Notes under the pieces: generated by a model
The model's database searches: none
The model's input: the letters and a program-made list of their open reading frames with translations, nothing else
What the model was told of the DNA's origin: nothing
Shown here: in pieces, positions 791-56,101 of the stretch
Numbering within the stretch: position 1 is the first letter of the stretch
Layout: each line of letters opens with the position of its first letter
Program-made: the position numbers and the translations under genes
NCBI GenBank assembly: GCA_038842485.1
Contig: JAWBSP010000003.1
Coordinates: 1-60,240, forward strand
DNA length: 60,240 bases
Source: Candidatus Hadarchaeales archaeon
GTDB lineage: Archaea > Hadarchaeota > Hadarchaeia > Hadarchaeales > JAWBSP01
Direction: 5' to 3'

Positions 791-1078
791 ATGGCGAGCA
801 TCCGGGTTAAAATAAGCGATGAAACGGAACGGAAGTTCAGGGAAGCTGCCATGAAGCGCTTCGGTTATGGAAAGGGTTCGCTGAGCCTAGCGGCGGAGGA
901 GGCTTTTAGCCAGTGGGTGGCCTCGATCGAAAAAGTCGAGTTTGAGGGAAACCCTGTGGAGGCGATTGAGGGGCTGTTGGCAGATTTGAGGGTCGATTCC
1001 GTCGAACTTCAGCACTTGGCGGCCGAACTCTGGGCCGGGAGGTCGGATGTACTTACTGGATACAAACATCTTCCTTGA
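791..1078 (+). CDS. Ribbon-helix-helix type antitoxin (VapB-like)
   Basis: MASIRVKISDETERKFREAA...SLSLAAEEA RHH pattern; overlaps the downstream PIN gene. Confidence 0.7.
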   Translation: MASIRVKISDETERKFREAAMKRFGYGKGSLSLAAEEAFSQWVASIEKVEFEGNPVEAIEGLLADLRVDSVELQHLAAELWAGRSDVLTGYKHLP

Positions 1079-1454
1079 GGTCCTGCTTTCGGGACCCAGG
1101 AAGGAAGAGTGCAGGAAGTTCTTGGAGCTGGTTTGGAGAGGGGACGCGGAGGGGGTGGTAACCGACTTCACCATCCATTCCATCTTAATCATCATGGGCA
1201 GGCTCAAGCGGTGGAAGGAGCTTTCCACTTTTCTCTCGAGTCTGCTCGCCTACAGGGGGCTCAAGATTCACTGGACCTCAATAAGCGATGAACTCCGGGC
1301 GATCGACCTGAGCAGGGGAAGGGGATTAGAAGTGGAGGACGCGATGCAGTACTCGGTCGCCGTCGGGGAGAGAGTTGAAGCGATCGTTTCTCTCGACAAG
1401 CATTTCGATGGACTCGATGTCCCGAGAGTTGAACCCAAGGATATCAACCGCTGA
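1047..1454 (+). CDS. vapC: PIN-domain toxin (VapC family)
   Basis: N-terminal YLLDTNIFLE, later EDAMQY and SLDKHFD acidic PIN motifs; 135 aa. Confidence 0.9.
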   Translation: MYLLDTNIFLEVLLSGPRKEECRKFLELVWRGDAEGVVTDFTIHSILIIMGRLKRWKELSTFLSSLLAYRGLKIHWTSISDELRAIDLSRGRGLEVEDAMQYSVAVGERVEAIVSLDKHFDGLDVPRVEPKDINR

Positions 1455-1483
1455 CAGGCAAGAGGGCGGCAGGATCAAAACCC

Positions 1484-2225
1484 AATGCGCACGTGGTATT
1501 AGCTGTAATTCCCAGATGCCGTTTGAGCGCTAAGAACGATGGTATGCCGGTAATTCTATAAGCACACTGGTTTTTCCCCGCAGCTAGGACGCACGTGCGT
1601 ACCACGTGGGGCAACCAAGATTTTTCTCCATACTACGCACGTGCGCAGTTTTCGCCCGGCTGGGACGCACGTGCGCAATCACAAATTACCTAGTTAATGT
1701 TGTGATGCTCTAGTCAAAGTCGTGTGCGCGGGTGGCGGGTGGTAATGCGCACGTGCGCAACAAAAGACCTAGCAAACTGACGAACTGCGCACGTGCGCGC
1801 ATTGAGTCTCACCGTCCGCAACGATCAAGAATTCTGTGCGTAGTTGCACAAAACAGTTTACAAACGAGTGGTGATTTTGCTCTCCTGATTGCGCACGTGC
1901 GCAATCCGCTAAGGGCATTGAGTACGCACGTGCGTACCACAATGCAGTCAACCCGGTGCTTGGATTTCCCCTTTTTATTGCGCACGTGCGCAAACCATCG
2001 ATTGAAGACAAGGCAATATCTCGTCACTTGGGATTTCACGGGCAGGTGCGGTGGAGGCATCCCTAGGAGCTTTTACAGCAAGCTGAGAGAAGCGGGAAGC
2101 TTCCAGAAGATTCAGAAGAGCGTCCTGATCACGAACGATCAAGAGACCGCCTTGAGAATAGAGCATCTGGTGAAGAGGTACGGTGGTAAATGCAGAACTT
2201 TTGCCGTGATTGCGCACGTGCGCAA
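1484..2225. repeat. Cluster of palindromic repeats, core CGCACGTGCG, best copies TTGCGCACGTGCGCAA
   Basis: CACGTG at 1490, 1592, 1603, 1638, 1668, 1750, 1790, 1894, 1927, 1983, 2215; nine carry the full 10-bp core; perfect 20-bp palindrome at 1887-1906. Confidence 0.95.
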
Positions 2226-2229
2226 CTAG
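2002..2229 (+). CDS. Small Cas2/VapD-like (ferredoxin-fold) protein, ~75 aa
   Basis: TTG at 2002: MKTRQYLVTWDFTG...FYSKLREAGSFQKIQKSVLI...LVKRYGGKCRTFAV. Hydrophobic strand ending in Asp plus QxSV motif as in Cas2-like proteins. Confidence 0.6.
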   Translation: MKTRQYLVTWDFTGRCGGGIPRSFYSKLREAGSFQKIQKSVLITNDQETALRIEHLVKRYGGKCRTFAVIAHVRN

Positions 2230-2265
2230 AACGGTTACCTTTTTTGCTGACCCTTTACAAACTTG

Positions 2266-3123
2266 ATGACCATTCTGGACGGGAAGGCGCTCGCCGAAAA
2301 AATCAAGCTCCAGTTAAGGGAAAGAGTATCCAGGCTCGAGAAAAAGCCCCGGCTCGCCGTCCTGCTTGTGGGGGAGGATCCGGCCTCCAAGACGTACGTC
2401 GAGGGGAAGAGGAAGGACTGCGAGCAGGTCGGCATAGAGTTCGAGCTCCATCACTTTCCCTCGCAAGCCTCGCGAGAGGAAATCGGGCGGGAAATCGATA
2501 AGCTCAACTCTGACGAGAGAGTCACGGGGATCATCATCCAGCTCCCCCTCCCGCCCCACCTCTCCACCCTCCAGCTGATTTCCAGGATCGACCCCCGAAA
2601 GGATGTGGACGGCCTGCACCCCCTGAACGTCGGCAGGCTTTGGCTAGGGGATTACGATTTCGAGCGCGACCTCCTCCCCTGCACTCCGAAGGGAATTATA
2701 AGGCTCCTCGACCATTACTCCATCAAGCTCGAGGGAAAAATGGCGGTCATCGTAAATCGGAGCAATTTGGTTGGGAAGCCCCTCGCGAAGCTCATGCTCG
2801 ACAGAAACGCGACCGTGCTCATCTGCCACTCCAAAACCCCCGACCTCGCGAGGAAGATGGCGGAGGCGGACATCCTCGTGACGGCGGTTGGGAGAAGGCC
2901 GAGTTTTGTGGTCGGGCCGGAGATGGTGAAGGAAGGGGCGGTGGTGGTGGATGTCGGGATGAACTTCATTGGGGGGAGGCTGGTTGGGGATGTGGACTTC
3001 GAGCGTGTGAGCCAGAAAGCCTCCTATATAACGCCCGTTCCGGGAGGGGTTGGACCCATGACGAGGGCAATGCTTCTTGAAAACGTCGTGAGGGTGGCTG
3101 AGCGTGAACAAGGAAGAACTTAG
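2266..3123 (+). CDS. folD: Bifunctional methylene-THF dehydrogenase/methenyl-THF cyclohydrolase
   Basis: ILDGKALA, KDVDGLHPLN, PCTPKGI, RSNLVGKP, ITPVPGGVGPMT. Confidence 0.97.
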   Translation: MTILDGKALAEKIKLQLRERVSRLEKKPRLAVLLVGEDPASKTYVEGKRKDCEQVGIEFELHHFPSQASREEIGREIDKLNSDERVTGIIIQLPLPPHLSTLQLISRIDPRKDVDGLHPLNVGRLWLGDYDFERDLLPCTPKGIIRLLDHYSIKLEGKMAVIVNRSNLVGKPLAKLMLDRNATVLICHSKTPDLARKMAEADILVTAVGRRPSFVVGPEMVKEGAVVVDVGMNFIGGRLVGDVDFERVSQKASYITPVPGGVGPMTRAMLLENVVRVAEREQGRT

Positions 3124-3688
3124 GGCTGAGTTCAGAAGAAGGAGGCAGGAACTGGACCCGCGCGAGGTCCAGGAGAGGAGCAGGAGGGTGAGGGAAAATC
3201 TCGAGCGGCTGCCAGAGTTCTCCTCCTCAAGGTTCCTTGCAATTTACCTCCCGAAGCACGGAAGCGGGGAGGTCGACACCTACCCCCTCCTCGACCTTCT
3301 CGGTAGGAAGCGGATTGCGGTCCCGGTGGTCTTCAAGGAGCAGAGGATGATGAGGTTTTCGGAAATACTGAGTCCGGGGGAGCTCCAAGCTGGGGTCTTC
3401 GGCATCCCCGAACCAAAACCCGAGTGCTACCGGTGGGTGGAACCAGAGGAGCTCGACCTCGTGCTGGTCCCTGGCATATGCTTCGACTTGGAGGGCAGGC
3501 GGCTGGGGTACGGATACGGATACTATGACACGTTCCTGTCCGGGCTCAGAAGCGTGAACCCTGCATGCGTTTCGGTTGGGCTCGCCTACGAATTTCAGGT
3601 GGTCGAGAGGCTTCCAGACGGACCAAACGATCAGCGGGTGGATATCATAGTTACGGAGGAGTTTGTTAGACGTGTACGCGAGCGATAG
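3104..3688 (+). CDS. 5-formyltetrahydrofolate cyclo-ligase
   Basis: KEELR start, FGIPEP, LVPGICFDLEGRRLGYGYGYYD, DQRVDIIVTE. Confidence 0.93.
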   Translation: MNKEELRAEFRRRRQELDPREVQERSRRVRENLERLPEFSSSRFLAIYLPKHGSGEVDTYPLLDLLGRKRIAVPVVFKEQRMMRFSEILSPGELQAGVFGIPEPKPECYRWVEPEELDLVLVPGICFDLEGRRLGYGYGYYDTFLSGLRSVNPACVSVGLAYEFQVVERLPDGPNDQRVDIIVTEEFVRRVRER

Positions 3689-3695
3689 GAGCAAC

Positions 3696-4649
3696 ATGTG
3701 GGAGAAAATCTGGCGCTTCCCTGAGATGTGCGAGGAGGCACTCTCCTACAGTTCGGGCATGCAAACCTTCAAACCTTCCGGGATTGTGGTTGCGGGGATG
3801 GGAGGGTCAGCCATCTCGGGGGACATACTTCGGGACTGGCTCGACCCCCCTTTCCCCTTCGAGGTCTGCAGGGGCTATCACCTCCCGAGCTGGGTCTCCC
3901 AGAACTGCCTCGTCATCGCAATAAGCTACTCGGGTGAGACTGAGGAAACCCTGAGCTGCGTTAGGGAGGCTAGAAAGTACGGGGCAAAGCTTGCGGGGGT
4001 GAGTTCTGGTGGCACGCTGCAGGAGGAGTTAAGGGACTGTCCGTTCATTTGCGTCCCGCCCGGACTGCCGTCAAGAGCTGCTTTTCCCTACCTCTTCTTC
4101 TCGGCCGTCAGGATTCTCGAGGAGGCAGGGGTTCTCGAAAGGCGCGAGGAAATCCGGGAGGCCCTTGAGGTGCTGAGGTCGGTTCGGGAAAGATGGGCGG
4201 AGGAAACTAGGAAGCTGGCGGAGCGCCTTGTTGAGAGGCTGCCCTTTATCTACACCCCGCCACGCTTCTATTCGGTCGGGCTGAGGATAAAGACCCAGCT
4301 GAACGAGAACAGCAAGATTCCGGCGAAGGTTGAGGCCTTCCCAGAGCTGTGCCACAACGAGATCGTCGGGCTGCGCGGGACCCCTCCGAATGTGACCTTC
4401 TTGCTCGTGAGGGACAGGATGGAGGAGGAGAGGATAAGAATTCGAGTTGAGTTCCTGAAGAGGCTACTGGAGGGGAAAGAGATCACGGAGATTTGGGGGG
4501 AGGGGAAGGGATTGCTCGCGAGGATGCTCTCGGTATTATATCTGGGCGATTTCCTCTCCTGTCATCTCGCCGGGCTGAAGGGTGTGGACCCGACCCCGGT
4601 TGAGGAGATCTCGGAGCTGAAAAAGGAACTCCAGCGGCACCGACACTAA
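3696..4649 (+). CDS. Bifunctional phosphoglucose/phosphomannose isomerase
   Basis: GMGGSAISGD, SYSGETEET, QLNENSK, PELCHNEI; ATG at 3696. Confidence 0.92.
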   Translation: MWEKIWRFPEMCEEALSYSSGMQTFKPSGIVVAGMGGSAISGDILRDWLDPPFPFEVCRGYHLPSWVSQNCLVIAISYSGETEETLSCVREARKYGAKLAGVSSGGTLQEELRDCPFICVPPGLPSRAAFPYLFFSAVRILEEAGVLERREEIREALEVLRSVRERWAEETRKLAERLVERLPFIYTPPRFYSVGLRIKTQLNENSKIPAKVEAFPELCHNEIVGLRGTPPNVTFLLVRDRMEEERIRIRVEFLKRLLEGKEITEIWGEGKGLLARMLSVLYLGDFLSCHLAGLKGVDPTPVEEISELKKELQRHRH

Positions 4650-5449
4650 CTGGAAACGCACTTTTTCGCGCGACGCAACAGATCCAGCTGACGGGAAAGG
4701 TTCCTCCTCACGAGCCCCGACTTGAGCGCATCGCCGAAGAGGGTTTCAGCTATCAGTTCGAGCGTCTCCTCCTCCTGAAGCAAGGTTCCTATTCCCCTGC
4801 TGGCGAGCTCGAGCTTCCATGGTTCCTCCCCCAGGGATTCAAGAAACCTCCTCGGCGAGTAGAAAAGGAGCCCGTAAAGGTCGCAGGCGTCCTTTGCCCG
4901 CTTTTCCCCGGTCTCCCTCTTCAGGAAGGAGTCCACCTTAAGCAGGAAAAGGAAATCCTCGTCCGGCACGAACACCTTCCTCCCCTCAACCGAAACCTGC
5001 TTCACCGCCCCCCTTTCAATCATCCTAGCCACGACCTCGTTCGGCCATGACCCCAGGATCTCGCTCTCTCGGTTGCTCAGGACGTCCAAAAAAACGTACA
5101 TCAGCTCGAAAATCTGCTTCCGCCTCGCCTCACGCTCGCTCAGCTTCCTCATGGACTGCCTGTCAAAGATGAGGGTATACCTGAACCTGCATTCCCCCGG
5201 CCTGAAGCCGACTTTTTCTATCGCTCTGGCAAAACGACTTGGAAAATCGCTCTCACAGTCTAGATAAACATCTAGGTCCCTGGACTTGGGGAACTCCCGT
5301 CCCGTTGCCCTGAGAAAGTTTTCACTTATCAGCGAGTGTACCGCCCAGCCTCCAACCAGTCCGAAGTGGGGAGCCGGCTCGAGCTGGTCCAAGATCTCGA
5401 GAAGAACCCTCCGAGCGACCTCCGTTTCCAGCGGATCGTAAAGAATCAA
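4646..5449 (-). CDS. Nucleotidyltransferase-fold protein (AbiEii/type IV toxin-like)
   Basis: LVGGWAV...SRDLD NTase motif, LLKV..., KDACDL; TTGA overlap with upstream HTH gene. Confidence 0.7.
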   Translation of the reverse strand: MILYDPLETEVARRVLLEILDQLEPAPHFGLVGGWAVHSLISENFLRATGREFPKSRDLDVYLDCESDFPSRFARAIEKVGFRPGECRFRYTLIFDRQSMRKLSEREARRKQIFELMYVFLDVLSNRESEILGSWPNEVVARMIERGAVKQVSVEGRKVFVPDEDFLFLLKVDSFLKRETGEKRAKDACDLYGLLFYSPRRFLESLGEEPWKLELASRGIGTLLQEEETLELIAETLFGDALKSGLVRRNLSRQLDLLRRAKKCVSS

Positions 5450-6063
5450 ACTCTCAGCCCCACCTTCTGCGCCAGAAACCTCGCCGCCTCCCGCTCCCTG
5501 CCCCCGCAGCTGTAGAGGTCAGCGTAAAGCAGATAATCCGAGACTACCCAAATCCCCCTGATCTCCCTAGCACCATAGAAAGGATTCAAGTCGGAGACCA
5601 CTAAGTGAACGGTCCCCCCTTTGCCTGGATATACTTCATTCTCCTCCAAGACCCGGGACCAGGCGTCAATCTGCCCTTCCTCAACGTAAACATAGACCTC
5701 GTTCGGCACGACATAGGGAGCGACGAGCTCGGCGCCCGCGAGATGGGTGTAAGCATAAGTGAGTTCTCTCCCCGCGAGCTGGGCTATCTTCTTGATGAGA
5801 TATTGGGGCCTGTCCAGCGTCTCGAAGTCCATTCTCTTTAGGGACCTGAGCGGGCGGCCGTAGGCGATGAGATACACGAGCTCAGGGTTGACTACCCTTA
5901 TCCTCGGTCTTTTCCGGACATACCCTAACCCCTCAAGAGCGTTGATGTACTGGGAGCATCTCGAAAGGGGGACCTGAGCCTCCCTAGCGAGCTCCCTGAT
6001 GGAAACCAAGTTCGGTTTGTTTAGGAGCACATTAACTATCCTCAAAGCCGATCCTGGTATCAT
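5446..6063 (-). CDS. Winged-HTH protein, AbiEi/type IV antitoxin-like
   Basis: SIRELAREAQVPLSRCSQYINALEGLGYV HTH; C-terminal LLYADLYSCGGREREAA; paired with the NTase. Confidence 0.7.
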   Translation of the reverse strand: MIPGSALRIVNVLLNKPNLVSIRELAREAQVPLSRCSQYINALEGLGYVRKRPRIRVVNPELVYLIAYGRPLRSLKRMDFETLDRPQYLIKKIAQLAGRELTYAYTHLAGAELVAPYVVPNEVYVYVEEGQIDAWSRVLEENEVYPGKGGTVHLVVSDLNPFYGAREIRGIWVVSDYLLYADLYSCGGREREAARFLAQKVGLRV

Positions 6064-12210: not shown

Positions 12211-12286
<76 letters not shown>

Positions 12287-12310
<24 letters not shown>

Positions 12311-26292: not shown

Positions 26293-26578
26293 GGGCGAGC
26301 CGGTGGGTGGCTGCCGGGCGAAAGCCTGAGGAAACTCCGTCCACCGGGCAGGACCGCGAGCCCGCAAGGGCTAGGCCGGGAGGCCTGCTCCTGAAACAGA
26401 AACGAAACCCGCCACTCTGAACGATGATGCGAAAGCTGAGATGGAGTGGAGAGGGATGAAACGGTCAGTCCGCGGGGTGCAAGGACAAGCACCGCCTATG
26501 AGCCCCTGCCTGAGGCGGGGGTAGTCCGCTTAGTCAAATGCCACCTAAAACAGAAGACGGGTTACGGCCGGCTCGCCT
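26293..26578 (+). ncRNA. rnpB: RNase P RNA (archaeal type A-like)
   Basis: P1 GGCGAGCCGG/CCGGCTCGCC; GAGGAAACTCCGTC pairs with ACAGAAGACGGGTTA (P4); conserved ACAGAAACG, GATGAAACGG, GGTGCAAG, GGTAG..CGCTTAG. Confidence 0.93.
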
Positions 26579-51513: not shown

Positions 51514-51591
51514 TGGTGGGGTCGCTGGGATTTGAACCCAAGTCACCGGCTCCCAAAGCCGGCAGGATAGACCAGGCTACCCCACGACCCC
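51514..51591 (-). tRNA. tRNA-Pro(TGG), CCA encoded
   Basis: GGGGTCG/CGACCCC-ACCA, CCGGC-TT-TGG-GA-GCCGG, GGTTCAAATCC. Confidence 0.96.
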
Positions 51592-55934: not shown

Positions 55935-55965
55935 ACCTAAATCTTCTAAGACCAGATTTTTTGAT

Positions 55966-56051
55966 CCCGCGGTAACTCAGCCTGGTAGAGTGGCCGGCTG
56001 TAGACCCTGGCCGAAACCGGCATGTCGGGGGTTCAAATCCCTCCCGCGGGA
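55966..56051 (+). tRNA. tRNA-Tyr(GTA) with 12-nt intron at 37/38 (56004-56015)
   Basis: C1-G72 acceptor CCCGCGG/CCGCGGG-A, GCCGG-CT-GTA-G^A-CCGGC, GGTTCAAATCC. Confidence 0.93.
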
Positions 56052-56101
56052 CCCCAAAATACTTCTGGCTCTCGGGGATAAACTTACCAACCCACATTCT
56101 A

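Follow-up and report, generated by a model that had tools for sequence, protein, structure and literature searches.

What does a dense cluster of short palindromes stand for in an archaeal chromosome, and which protein, if any, recognizes it? The question is raised by positions 1484 to 2225 of contig C3 in the assembly G000 (943,141 bases, 27 contigs, 88.9% complete), where many palindromes centred on CACGTG lie close together; the whole of this contig, 60,240 bases beginning at a contig end, is called here the window. An earlier note on this DNA had proposed a multi-site array for a dimeric binding protein, possibly a centromere-like or Smc-loading locus. The first part of this proposal fits our results, with a small Cas2-like open reading frame (ORF) embedded in the array as the candidate protein, and the centromere or Smc-loading part found no support. 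Our answer, which is tentative and which we hold to be possible rather than probable, is that the array consists of the cognate recognition sites of this Cas2-like protein, that the site at 1978-1993 is its autoregulatory operator and that the upstream copies come from duplication and decay of the cassette and act now as extra binding sites. It is from the sequence that we infer the role of the protein as a binder, its binding to double-stranded DNA and the role of the array. For comparison we used 41 related genomes, probably Hadarchaeales; G001 and G002 are two congeners of G000. The lineage names, Hadarchaeota or Hadarchaeales, come from the sources of database homologues, whose annotations all read "hypothetical protein" or Cas2.

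The cluster is real and goes far beyond chance. The 10-bp core CGCACGTGCG is present in nine exact copies, starting at 1590, 1636, 1666, 1748, 1788, 1892, 1925, 1981 and 2213, and none was found outside 1590-2222 in the rest of the window (mean of 0.00 over 100 shuffles). For the hexamer CACGTG the window gives a count of 18, of which 11 fall at 1490-2220, compared with a shuffle mean of 6.12 and a maximum of 13. Distances from start to start of the full cores are 46, 30, 82, 40, 104, 33, 56 and 232 bp. A recount therefore gave again what had been reported before, that is 11 hexamers, nine full cores, perfect palindromes of 16 and 20 bp, an irregular spacing of 30-232 bp and 0 other copies of the core in the 60,240 bases. 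Over the whole genome (943,141 bases, 27 contigs) CGCACGTGCG is counted 10 times, nine times in the array and once at C1:79514.

The sites, which have no strand of their own, differ in length and in their arms. The leftmost, at 1484-1497, is decayed, a half-site with a 1-base deletion and one substitution: compared with the metagenome contig L223 and with the variant strain of runs X11/X13, where a full 18-bp palindrome is found, a C is missing after 1495 and a T stands for C at 1497. A 12-bp perfect palindrome with the A..T arm variant follows at 1589-1600, with a separate CACGTG just after it at 1603-1608. The sites at 1633-1648 and 1663-1678 have the full 10-bp core and mixed arms, the former combining an A-type left half with a G-type right half. 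Then come perfect palindromes of 14 bp (1746-1759), 12 bp (1787-1798), 20 bp (1887-1906) and 16 bp (1922-1937, again the A..T variant). An A/T-rich, TATA-like box is read on the plus strand at 1970-1977, a putative promoter element directly upstream of the 16-bp perfect palindrome at 1978-1993, which separates it from the start codon of the small ORF and is the proposed operator. The last 16-bp perfect palindrome, at 2210-2225, takes up the final codons of the ORF and ends shortly ahead of its stop codon (2227-2229). Symmetry itself had been thought to be under selection; in the window family the first flanking position shows symmetry in 8 of 10 sites, where 5.8 are expected, a difference that is not significant.

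The array does not depend on one assembly. The contig L223 (1,605 bases) corresponds to window 905-2508 at 99.75% identity and carries 10 full cores, and two further hot-spring studies supply contigs (runs X5 and X7) that span 1353-2170 and 1580-2307, their listed pieces showing zero differences. Since these independent data carry the same array, we conclude that it is not an assembly artefact. Two runs labelled metatranscriptomic were marked "probably DNA" and kept as contigs, and the coverage of the array in them is uninformative on transcription. Searches of a more general kind returned little: Rfam gave zero matches on the array region at the gathering threshold and at E up to 1; a scan for sigma-70 promoters and terminators, not applicable to archaea, gave 0 sites; in viral contigs the 16-mer matched singly seven times and a two-core pattern 10 times, with no array among them. 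In the genome collection the two-core pattern hit, among the matches listed, bacterial records, mostly of high-G+C groups, and is uninformative. RNA folding of 1470-2000 (z of -4.4 and -6.7) was left unused, since such values are trivial where palindromes that complement one another fill the sequence.

Outside the array the window motif has a single copy, at C1:79511-79526, which is in a non-coding stretch of about 300 bases and is directly followed by an A/T-rich run, with a divergent kinase-like frame on one side; the copy, at 79514, is upstream of an open frame read as an RFC small subunit without a family search. This site may be a second target of the Cas2-like protein of the window.

The stretch had been taken as wholly non-coding, a claim that has to be given up. 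An open frame at 1732-2229 ends in a small gene on the plus strand, 2002-2229, which encodes 75 amino acids (aa) from the TTG at 2002, or 95 aa from the ATG at 1942 chosen by the gene caller (P0001). Fold, profile and a conserved aspartate mark its product as distantly Cas2-like. When 1.84 billion representative proteins were searched with the single sequence, one true relative came up, P0002 (87 aa, 51% identity), which reaches the Pfam model CRISPR_Cas2 (PF09827) with 24.0 bits at a cut-off of 23.8; two repeat proteins from the same search are chance matches. We then relied on a family alignment of 18 members, built from the genomes of the relatives. Pfam Cas2 is matched by 5 of the 18 (E up to 0.1), and the window protein is not among them; one member each matched RsmI_C (E 0.013) and CjCas9_PI_CTD (E 0.093). 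Compared with solved Cas2 structures, the 18-member profile gave an E of 2.5e-5 for 3exc and of about 0.007-0.009 for 2i8e and 2ivy, and NCBIfam and PADLOC gave weak Cas2 matches for two of five tested members, those to TIGR01573 lying under its cut-off. We use the label "Cas2-like" and not Cas2 because the window protein passes no family threshold.

The predicted structure of the window protein has a pLDDT (predicted local distance difference test) of 89.2, and Foldseek found Cas2 chains as its best PDB matches, with a probability of 0.99-1.00, E of about 0.01 and TM scores of 0.54-0.61; among the fold matches are solved Cas1-Cas2 complexes which, judging by their titles, contain DNA. All 18 aligned members have Asp11, at the end of strand 1, and Gly14, Gln38 and Ser40 are nearly invariant. 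In Cas2 the aspartate at the end of strand 1 is a metal-binding residue with a catalytic role. The isoelectric point (pI) of the window protein is 10.3. A homodimer prediction scored 0.30, with the mark at 0.42, and counts neither way; the ESM Atlas offered unnamed clusters alone, with scores of 0.85-0.86, which are leads only.

Upstream of the gene, 1800-1906 on the plus strand may be a decayed copy of its 3' end, terminating with the 20-bp palindrome. The DNA of this interval aligns with 2110-2229, an exact 11-mer is found at both 1820 and 2134, and the same frame gives a C-terminal peptide resembling that of the Cas2-like gene; the case is suggestive only. The same must be said of 1609-1686, where the N-terminal half may have left a weaker trace (E 0.001 by tblastn, the search space being tiny).

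A link between gene and palindromes is suggested by other places in the same genome. Allowing mismatches to the 16-mer brought up a sister palindrome, GCGAACGTTCGC, of AACGTT type, with 18 copies in G000. Five of them form an array at C9:10315-10599 with a period of 70-72 bp and a truncated paralogue of the gene beside it, and seven perfect copies and a degenerate one form a second array at C11:4691-5316, next to a frameshifted paralogue without start codon. A pair on C2 adjoins a degraded paralogue, a pair on C23 adjoins an intact one of 80 aa, and single copies are at C11:13409 and C11:33056. Altogether, one copy of the AACGTT-type gene is intact in G000 and four are decayed. Of the 12 twelve-base cores compared in the C9 and C11 arrays, 11 are identical, and the spacers between them are at most 73% alike, so that the palindromes are what is kept; perfect arrays beside dead gene copies also fit an action in trans by the intact copy on C23.

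Other palindrome families exist in this genome. There are 108 perfect palindromes of at least 14 bp where roughly 58 are expected, and 60 of them fall in five families. Arrays of further CACGTG-centred motifs, with arms TGTAACAC or TGAAACAC, were found at C16:10821-11015 and C18:3484-3715. The one on C16, a third motif array, is just downstream of a weaker member of the protein family (E 0.003), the weak Cas2-like ORF on the minus strand at C16:11085-11279, and its copies are asymmetric throughout at the same one position, an asymmetric site that persists in five copies. The largest family, with 23 copies, is a 16-bp perfect palindrome with a TATA centre (C13:3825-3995, C13:8952-9183, C18:11712-12055, and also C4, C10, C11, C23 and C27), whose clusters flank an orc1/cdc6 gene (C13:6214-7248) on both sides at about 2 kb. 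The third-largest, CACGTG-centred with core GCACACGTGTGC, has 10 copies of at least 14 bp, in small arrays in non-coding stretches (C12:1627-1934, C21:702-764, C11:19941-20071, and on C2, C6 and C22), and no linked small gene was found for these arrays in G000.

We also asked how gene and repeats occur in the relatives. A profile search placed the Cas2-like family in 13 of the 41 related genomes, and the abundance of each motif is specific to the genome. The core CGCACGTGCG occurs 10 times in G000, five times in G034 and at most once in each of the other 39 relatives; the five matches of G034 were judged unrelated, as they have no extended arms and four of the five are in open frames of more than 200 aa. 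Five genomes have 18, 17, 7, 6 and 5 copies of the sister palindrome GCGAACGTTCGC, the remaining 36 have 0-2 each, and controls with reversed motifs gave 0-1.

The gene keeps its bracket of palindromes across genera. Three other genera show one layout: a TATA-like box is followed about 30 bases on by an ATG, with the first palindrome in codons 5-9 and the second 224 bp after the first, right behind the stop codon, as in G022, G034 and G038; a third, degenerate palindrome is often found 52-71 bp beyond the second. In codons 5-9 the palindrome codes for A-N-V-R, a conserved motif of this subfamily. Other subfamilies have different inverted repeats in the same positions, at the promoter or start and at the stop codon, with two to five extra copies upstream or downstream. 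Ten loci have such repeats of their own (L178, L179, L180, L181, L183, L184, L185, L188, L189 and L191), as have L182, L186 and a locus on contig C33 of G034. Among these repeats are perfect palindromes of 14-18 bp and arms of 6-7 bases around a 2-base centre, and the centre is mostly A-N-N-T. L179, the closest relative among the available loci (38% identical), has a motif that differs from that of the window mainly in the 2-base centre and shows, like the window, a TATA-like box, the motif, 8 bases and a start codon. The order of TATA-like box, palindrome and start codon is common to the window, L178 and L179, and in L188 sites flank the TATA box on both sides. Upstream of the family gene in L186 (G006:C21), imperfect palindromes form an array that is partly hidden by a run of N. 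Cognate motifs are present in several copies in their own genomes; the congener G002, for example, has eight copies of another motif, in pairs, and two pairs are within about 200 bases of contig starts.

In G031, four copies of promoter, leader and first palindrome (L169, L209, L211 and L213) continue, exactly from the palindrome on, into unrelated sequence. The conserved promoter and leader copy at C11:13409 of G000 likewise stops at the first palindrome and is followed by no gene. Two such leader copies of G031 and G000 and one site of G024 are near apparent tRNA genes, read as such without a tRNA scan.

The mechanism that we propose is as follows. The basic Cas2-fold protein would bind as a dimer, each subunit holding one arm of the 16-bp palindrome. 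The site at 1978-1993, between the TATA-like box and the start codon at 2002, would be an autoregulatory operator, and a second site would lie over the stop codon. The eight or nine upstream sites would go back to a cassette that recombination between identical palindromes duplicated in tandem and that decayed, and may serve now as a titrating or nucleating platform; such recombination would explain duplications, truncations at palindromes and arrays alike. Gene and palindromes together would then be a multi-copy accessory cassette specific to one lineage, probably Hadarchaeales. Several observations speak for a binder: sister arrays and pairs adjoin intact, frameshifted or truncated paralogues in G000, the bracket around the gene is conserved across G022, G034 and G038, motif and protein subfamily change together from locus to locus, the cores of the C9 and C11 arrays are better kept than their spacers, and the abundance of each motif is specific to the genome. 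The protein suits this role because of its pI and its fold, and the operator is suggested because its site is placed alike in the window, L178 and L179. In archaea, proteins bound between the TATA box and the start act as repressors.

Several results weigh against this explanation. To our knowledge, sequence-specific recognition of double-stranded DNA is not known for Cas2-fold proteins, and no Pfam, NCBIfam or PADLOC model matched the window protein. The 23-copy and the 10-copy families of G000 have no adjoining Cas2-like gene, so that palindrome arrays in this genome need not depend on the Cas2-like family at all. In G031 and G024, which have six and five AACGTT-type sites, the cognate gene of that subfamily was not found (assemblies 87-90% complete). 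Twelve of the 17 sister-motif sites of G022 are inside open frames of more than 200 aa, and perfect palindromes of 12-18 bp lie within long frames at L200 and L203, and also at L166, L194, L197-L199 and L202; three sites in two of these frames, compared with orthologues, were made by point substitutions with no insertions or deletions, and a promoter-operator role leaves such sites unexplained. Finally, the first flanking pair of the AACGTT family is T..A in 32 sites and G..C in 19 and is never mixed, giving 51 symmetric sites among 55 where 27.6 are expected, and the same covariation is visible in the protein N-termini encoded across the site. It points to pairing within a strand, or to copying of whole sites, and not to the independent reading of half-sites by a dimer.

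These last results lead to the alternative that the palindromes are hairpins, of RNA or of single-stranded DNA, and substrates of the Cas2-like protein acting as a nuclease, in a system like type III toxin-antitoxin modules, whose small nuclease cleaves and binds the RNA made from a repeat array, or like REP/RAYT (repetitive extragenic palindromes with their associated tyrosine transposases). We regard it as unlikely, though not negligibly so. It would make sense of the covariation without a mixed pair among 55 sites, of the strand-1 aspartate kept by all 18 members and of the in-frame sites of G022, where targeting at the RNA level is conceivable; a multi-copy gene bracketed by identical repeats, the four leader copies of G031 that switch to other sequence at the palindrome and the presence of the module between different housekeeping genes in different genomes also agree with it. 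However, covariation at the flanks is absent from the window family and from three other palindrome families of G000, and a hairpin hardly accounts for a site on C16 that stays asymmetric in five copies. The units of the C9 and C11 arrays carry T-runs, which stop archaeal transcription and should end it after the first unit, the spacing in the window is irregular, unlike the repeats of type III antitoxins, Pfam gave no HUH or tyrosine-transposase signature among the 18 members, and Rfam was without match. If instead the palindromes are read by another factor of the host, be it a transcription factor or chromatin protein, the Cas2-like genes would be regulated by it or would hitch-hike. The families without a Cas2-like gene, the arrays on C12, C13 and C18 that have none nearby, and the sites of G031 and G024 whose cognate gene was not found are what one would expect then; yet the motif shifts with the protein subfamily at every locus examined, which for an unlinked factor would require co-variation genome by genome, and the bracket around the gene is kept across genera, so that we think this explanation improbable.

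The parS analogue of the earlier note, a chromosomal centromere-like or Smc-loading locus, has in its favour the clustered 16-bp palindromes with their CACGTG centre and the resemblance of tandem units with a 16-bp palindrome to plasmid centromeres, for example sopC of F. Bacterial parS and similar chromosome-organising sites are dispersed and occur also inside open frames, and the sister motif of G022 behaves in the same way. But the ParB gene that was to be sought in the genome did not appear: ParB_N (PF02195) has 0 matches in G000, 88.9% complete, in a search whose control was positive in 10 of 14 well-known genomes. Nor was there the conserved cluster near an origin that was expected in relatives, since no cluster is beside folD in either congener, where the motif occurs once and not at all, and orc1/cdc6 (TIGR02928 over its cut-off) is found only at C6:10702-11823 and C13:6214-7248 and not on C3, in a fragmented assembly. 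At least three arrays with two motif types are present in one genome of 0.94 Mb, beside decaying gene copies; sister-motif sites in G022 and G038, two species of one genus, are at non-orthologous places; the neighbours include no ParA-type gene (no genome-wide search for ParA was run), and the link to the AAA_14 ATPase gene of the window is lost in other samples. A centromere is for these reasons very improbable. A replication origin with an array of origin recognition boxes was also considered and rejected, given the absence of orc1/cdc6 from C3; the GC-skew profile was unusable. Just as remote is a decayed or derived CRISPR array with a surviving Cas2 gene. The Cas2-like protein itself would suit it, as would the sister arrays, which follow a conserved promoter and leader and have a period of 70-72 bp with a core, also conserved, of about 20 bp. 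Against it, Cas1 (PF01867) has 0 matches in G000 and no match in 8 of the 13 genomes bearing the family, and in the other five it is on a different contig from the family gene; the would-be spacers are homologous to one another within and between arrays, the window has its irregular spacing, and a 16-mer scan of G000 found no ordinary CRISPR array, although metagenome-assembled genomes are often without them.

Beyond the autoregulated binder, a bolder version can be imagined, a CRISPR-independent system of solo Cas2-fold proteins that recognise the gene-bracketing palindrome and perhaps cut or recombine at it. The palindrome would then multiply into periodic arrays behind a conserved promoter and leader and would seed copies across the chromosome. 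We put this forward as speculation with a small chance of being right.

The surroundings of the array are those of an accessory locus. Directly upstream, a small plus-strand ORF at 782-1078, matching no family and VapB-like by layout only, is overlapped by a PIN-domain gene at 1047-1454 on the same strand (Pfam PIN, E 1.5e-12), and this block, 782-1454, is arranged like a VapBC pair. The other neighbours are a folD-type gene and an AAA_14 ATPase gene (2-694). Contigs of four other runs leave the window sequence left of 751, at the same loose end, and the AAA_14 gene is therefore not a neighbour of the PIN and array block in those samples. On the other side, a locus of G002 (L011, contig C2) is syntenic with window 2263-4649, with folD, a 5-formyltetrahydrofolate cyclo-ligase-like gene and a SIS-domain-like gene in the same order. 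Its folD abuts, with no spacer, an upstream gene read as adenylosuccinate lyase, so that all of the window left of 2263 is lineage-specific; palindromes beside folD were found neither in G001 nor in G002. As the module is flanked by differing housekeeping genes from genome to genome, the element looks, on sequence grounds, accessory and mobile. Farther on, two overlapping minus-strand ORFs of 205 and 267 aa at 4646-6063, winged-helix-like and nucleotidyltransferase-like from their translations only, could be another toxin-antitoxin-like pair. The archaeal origin of the window is confirmed by an archaeal RNase P RNA at 26295-26576 (226 bits) and by three tRNA genes at 12212-12310, 51514-51591 and 55965-56054 (Leu-aag, Pro-tgg and Leu-tag).

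Cas2 has been described almost exclusively as Cas1's structural partner during CRISPR adaptation, and free-standing homologues have no settled role. The family described here has the Cas2 fold and is found without Cas1; every member goes with a palindromic repeat of its own, and these repeats can expand into arrays with a CRISPR-like period. One protein of 75 aa and one site of 16 bp make a testable pair, for which the sister pair in G000 is a natural control of specificity. If the protein binds or cuts the palindrome, a sequence-specific function would be added to the Cas2 fold, and this could bear on how repeats and Cas2 first met. The bolder version, if true, would give a new self-propagating cassette, integron- or REP-like and without a known recombinase, or alternatively a living example of the partnership of Cas2 and repeats that is assumed at the origin of CRISPR arrays. 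For annotation, the module accounts for a number of long "non-coding" stretches and of contig breaks in the small genomes of these hot-spring archaea. A full-text literature search, to whose scope most subscription journals did not belong, found no description of such a gene-plus-palindrome module.

Among known systems we tentatively class the array, as a variant, with the small autoregulated binding proteins that have iterated cognate sites. With Cas2 (PF09827, TIGR01573) the family shares the profile match to solved structures, the strand-1 aspartate, a Q-x-S-V strand, small size and basic charge; it differs in being unlinked to Cas1 or to a spacer-bearing array and in having each gene bracketed by its own inverted repeat, and the window protein is under the threshold of every model. 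Plasmid-type centromeres, and the iteron or operator arrays that small dimeric proteins bind, such as sopC with SopB of F or parC with ParR, also consist of palindrome units beside the gene of a small basic protein, one of them in its promoter. However, no ParA- or ParM-type NTPase adjoins the array here, the fold is Cas2-like and neither ParB nor ribbon-helix-helix, and the element is chromosomal, multi-copy and decaying. REP/RAYT systems have in common with ours a gene flanked by cognate palindromes, solo or clustered copies elsewhere and palindromes specific to a clade, whereas our gene does not encode an HUH/Y1 transposase, its palindromes are short and for the most part perfect, and some copies, those of G022, are in open frames. 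A type III toxin-antitoxin system such as ToxIN likewise puts a small putative nuclease gene beside tandem short repeats in the same orientation; the repeats here are instead palindromic, irregular in the window or with a period of 70-72 bp in the sister arrays, and the protein fold is another one. Bacterial parS with ParB, from which the question started, resembles the array in its 16-bp palindrome, CACGTG centre and several copies, but the arms are unrelated to the parS consensus that had been quoted, and the CACGTG centre is the sole agreement between the two.

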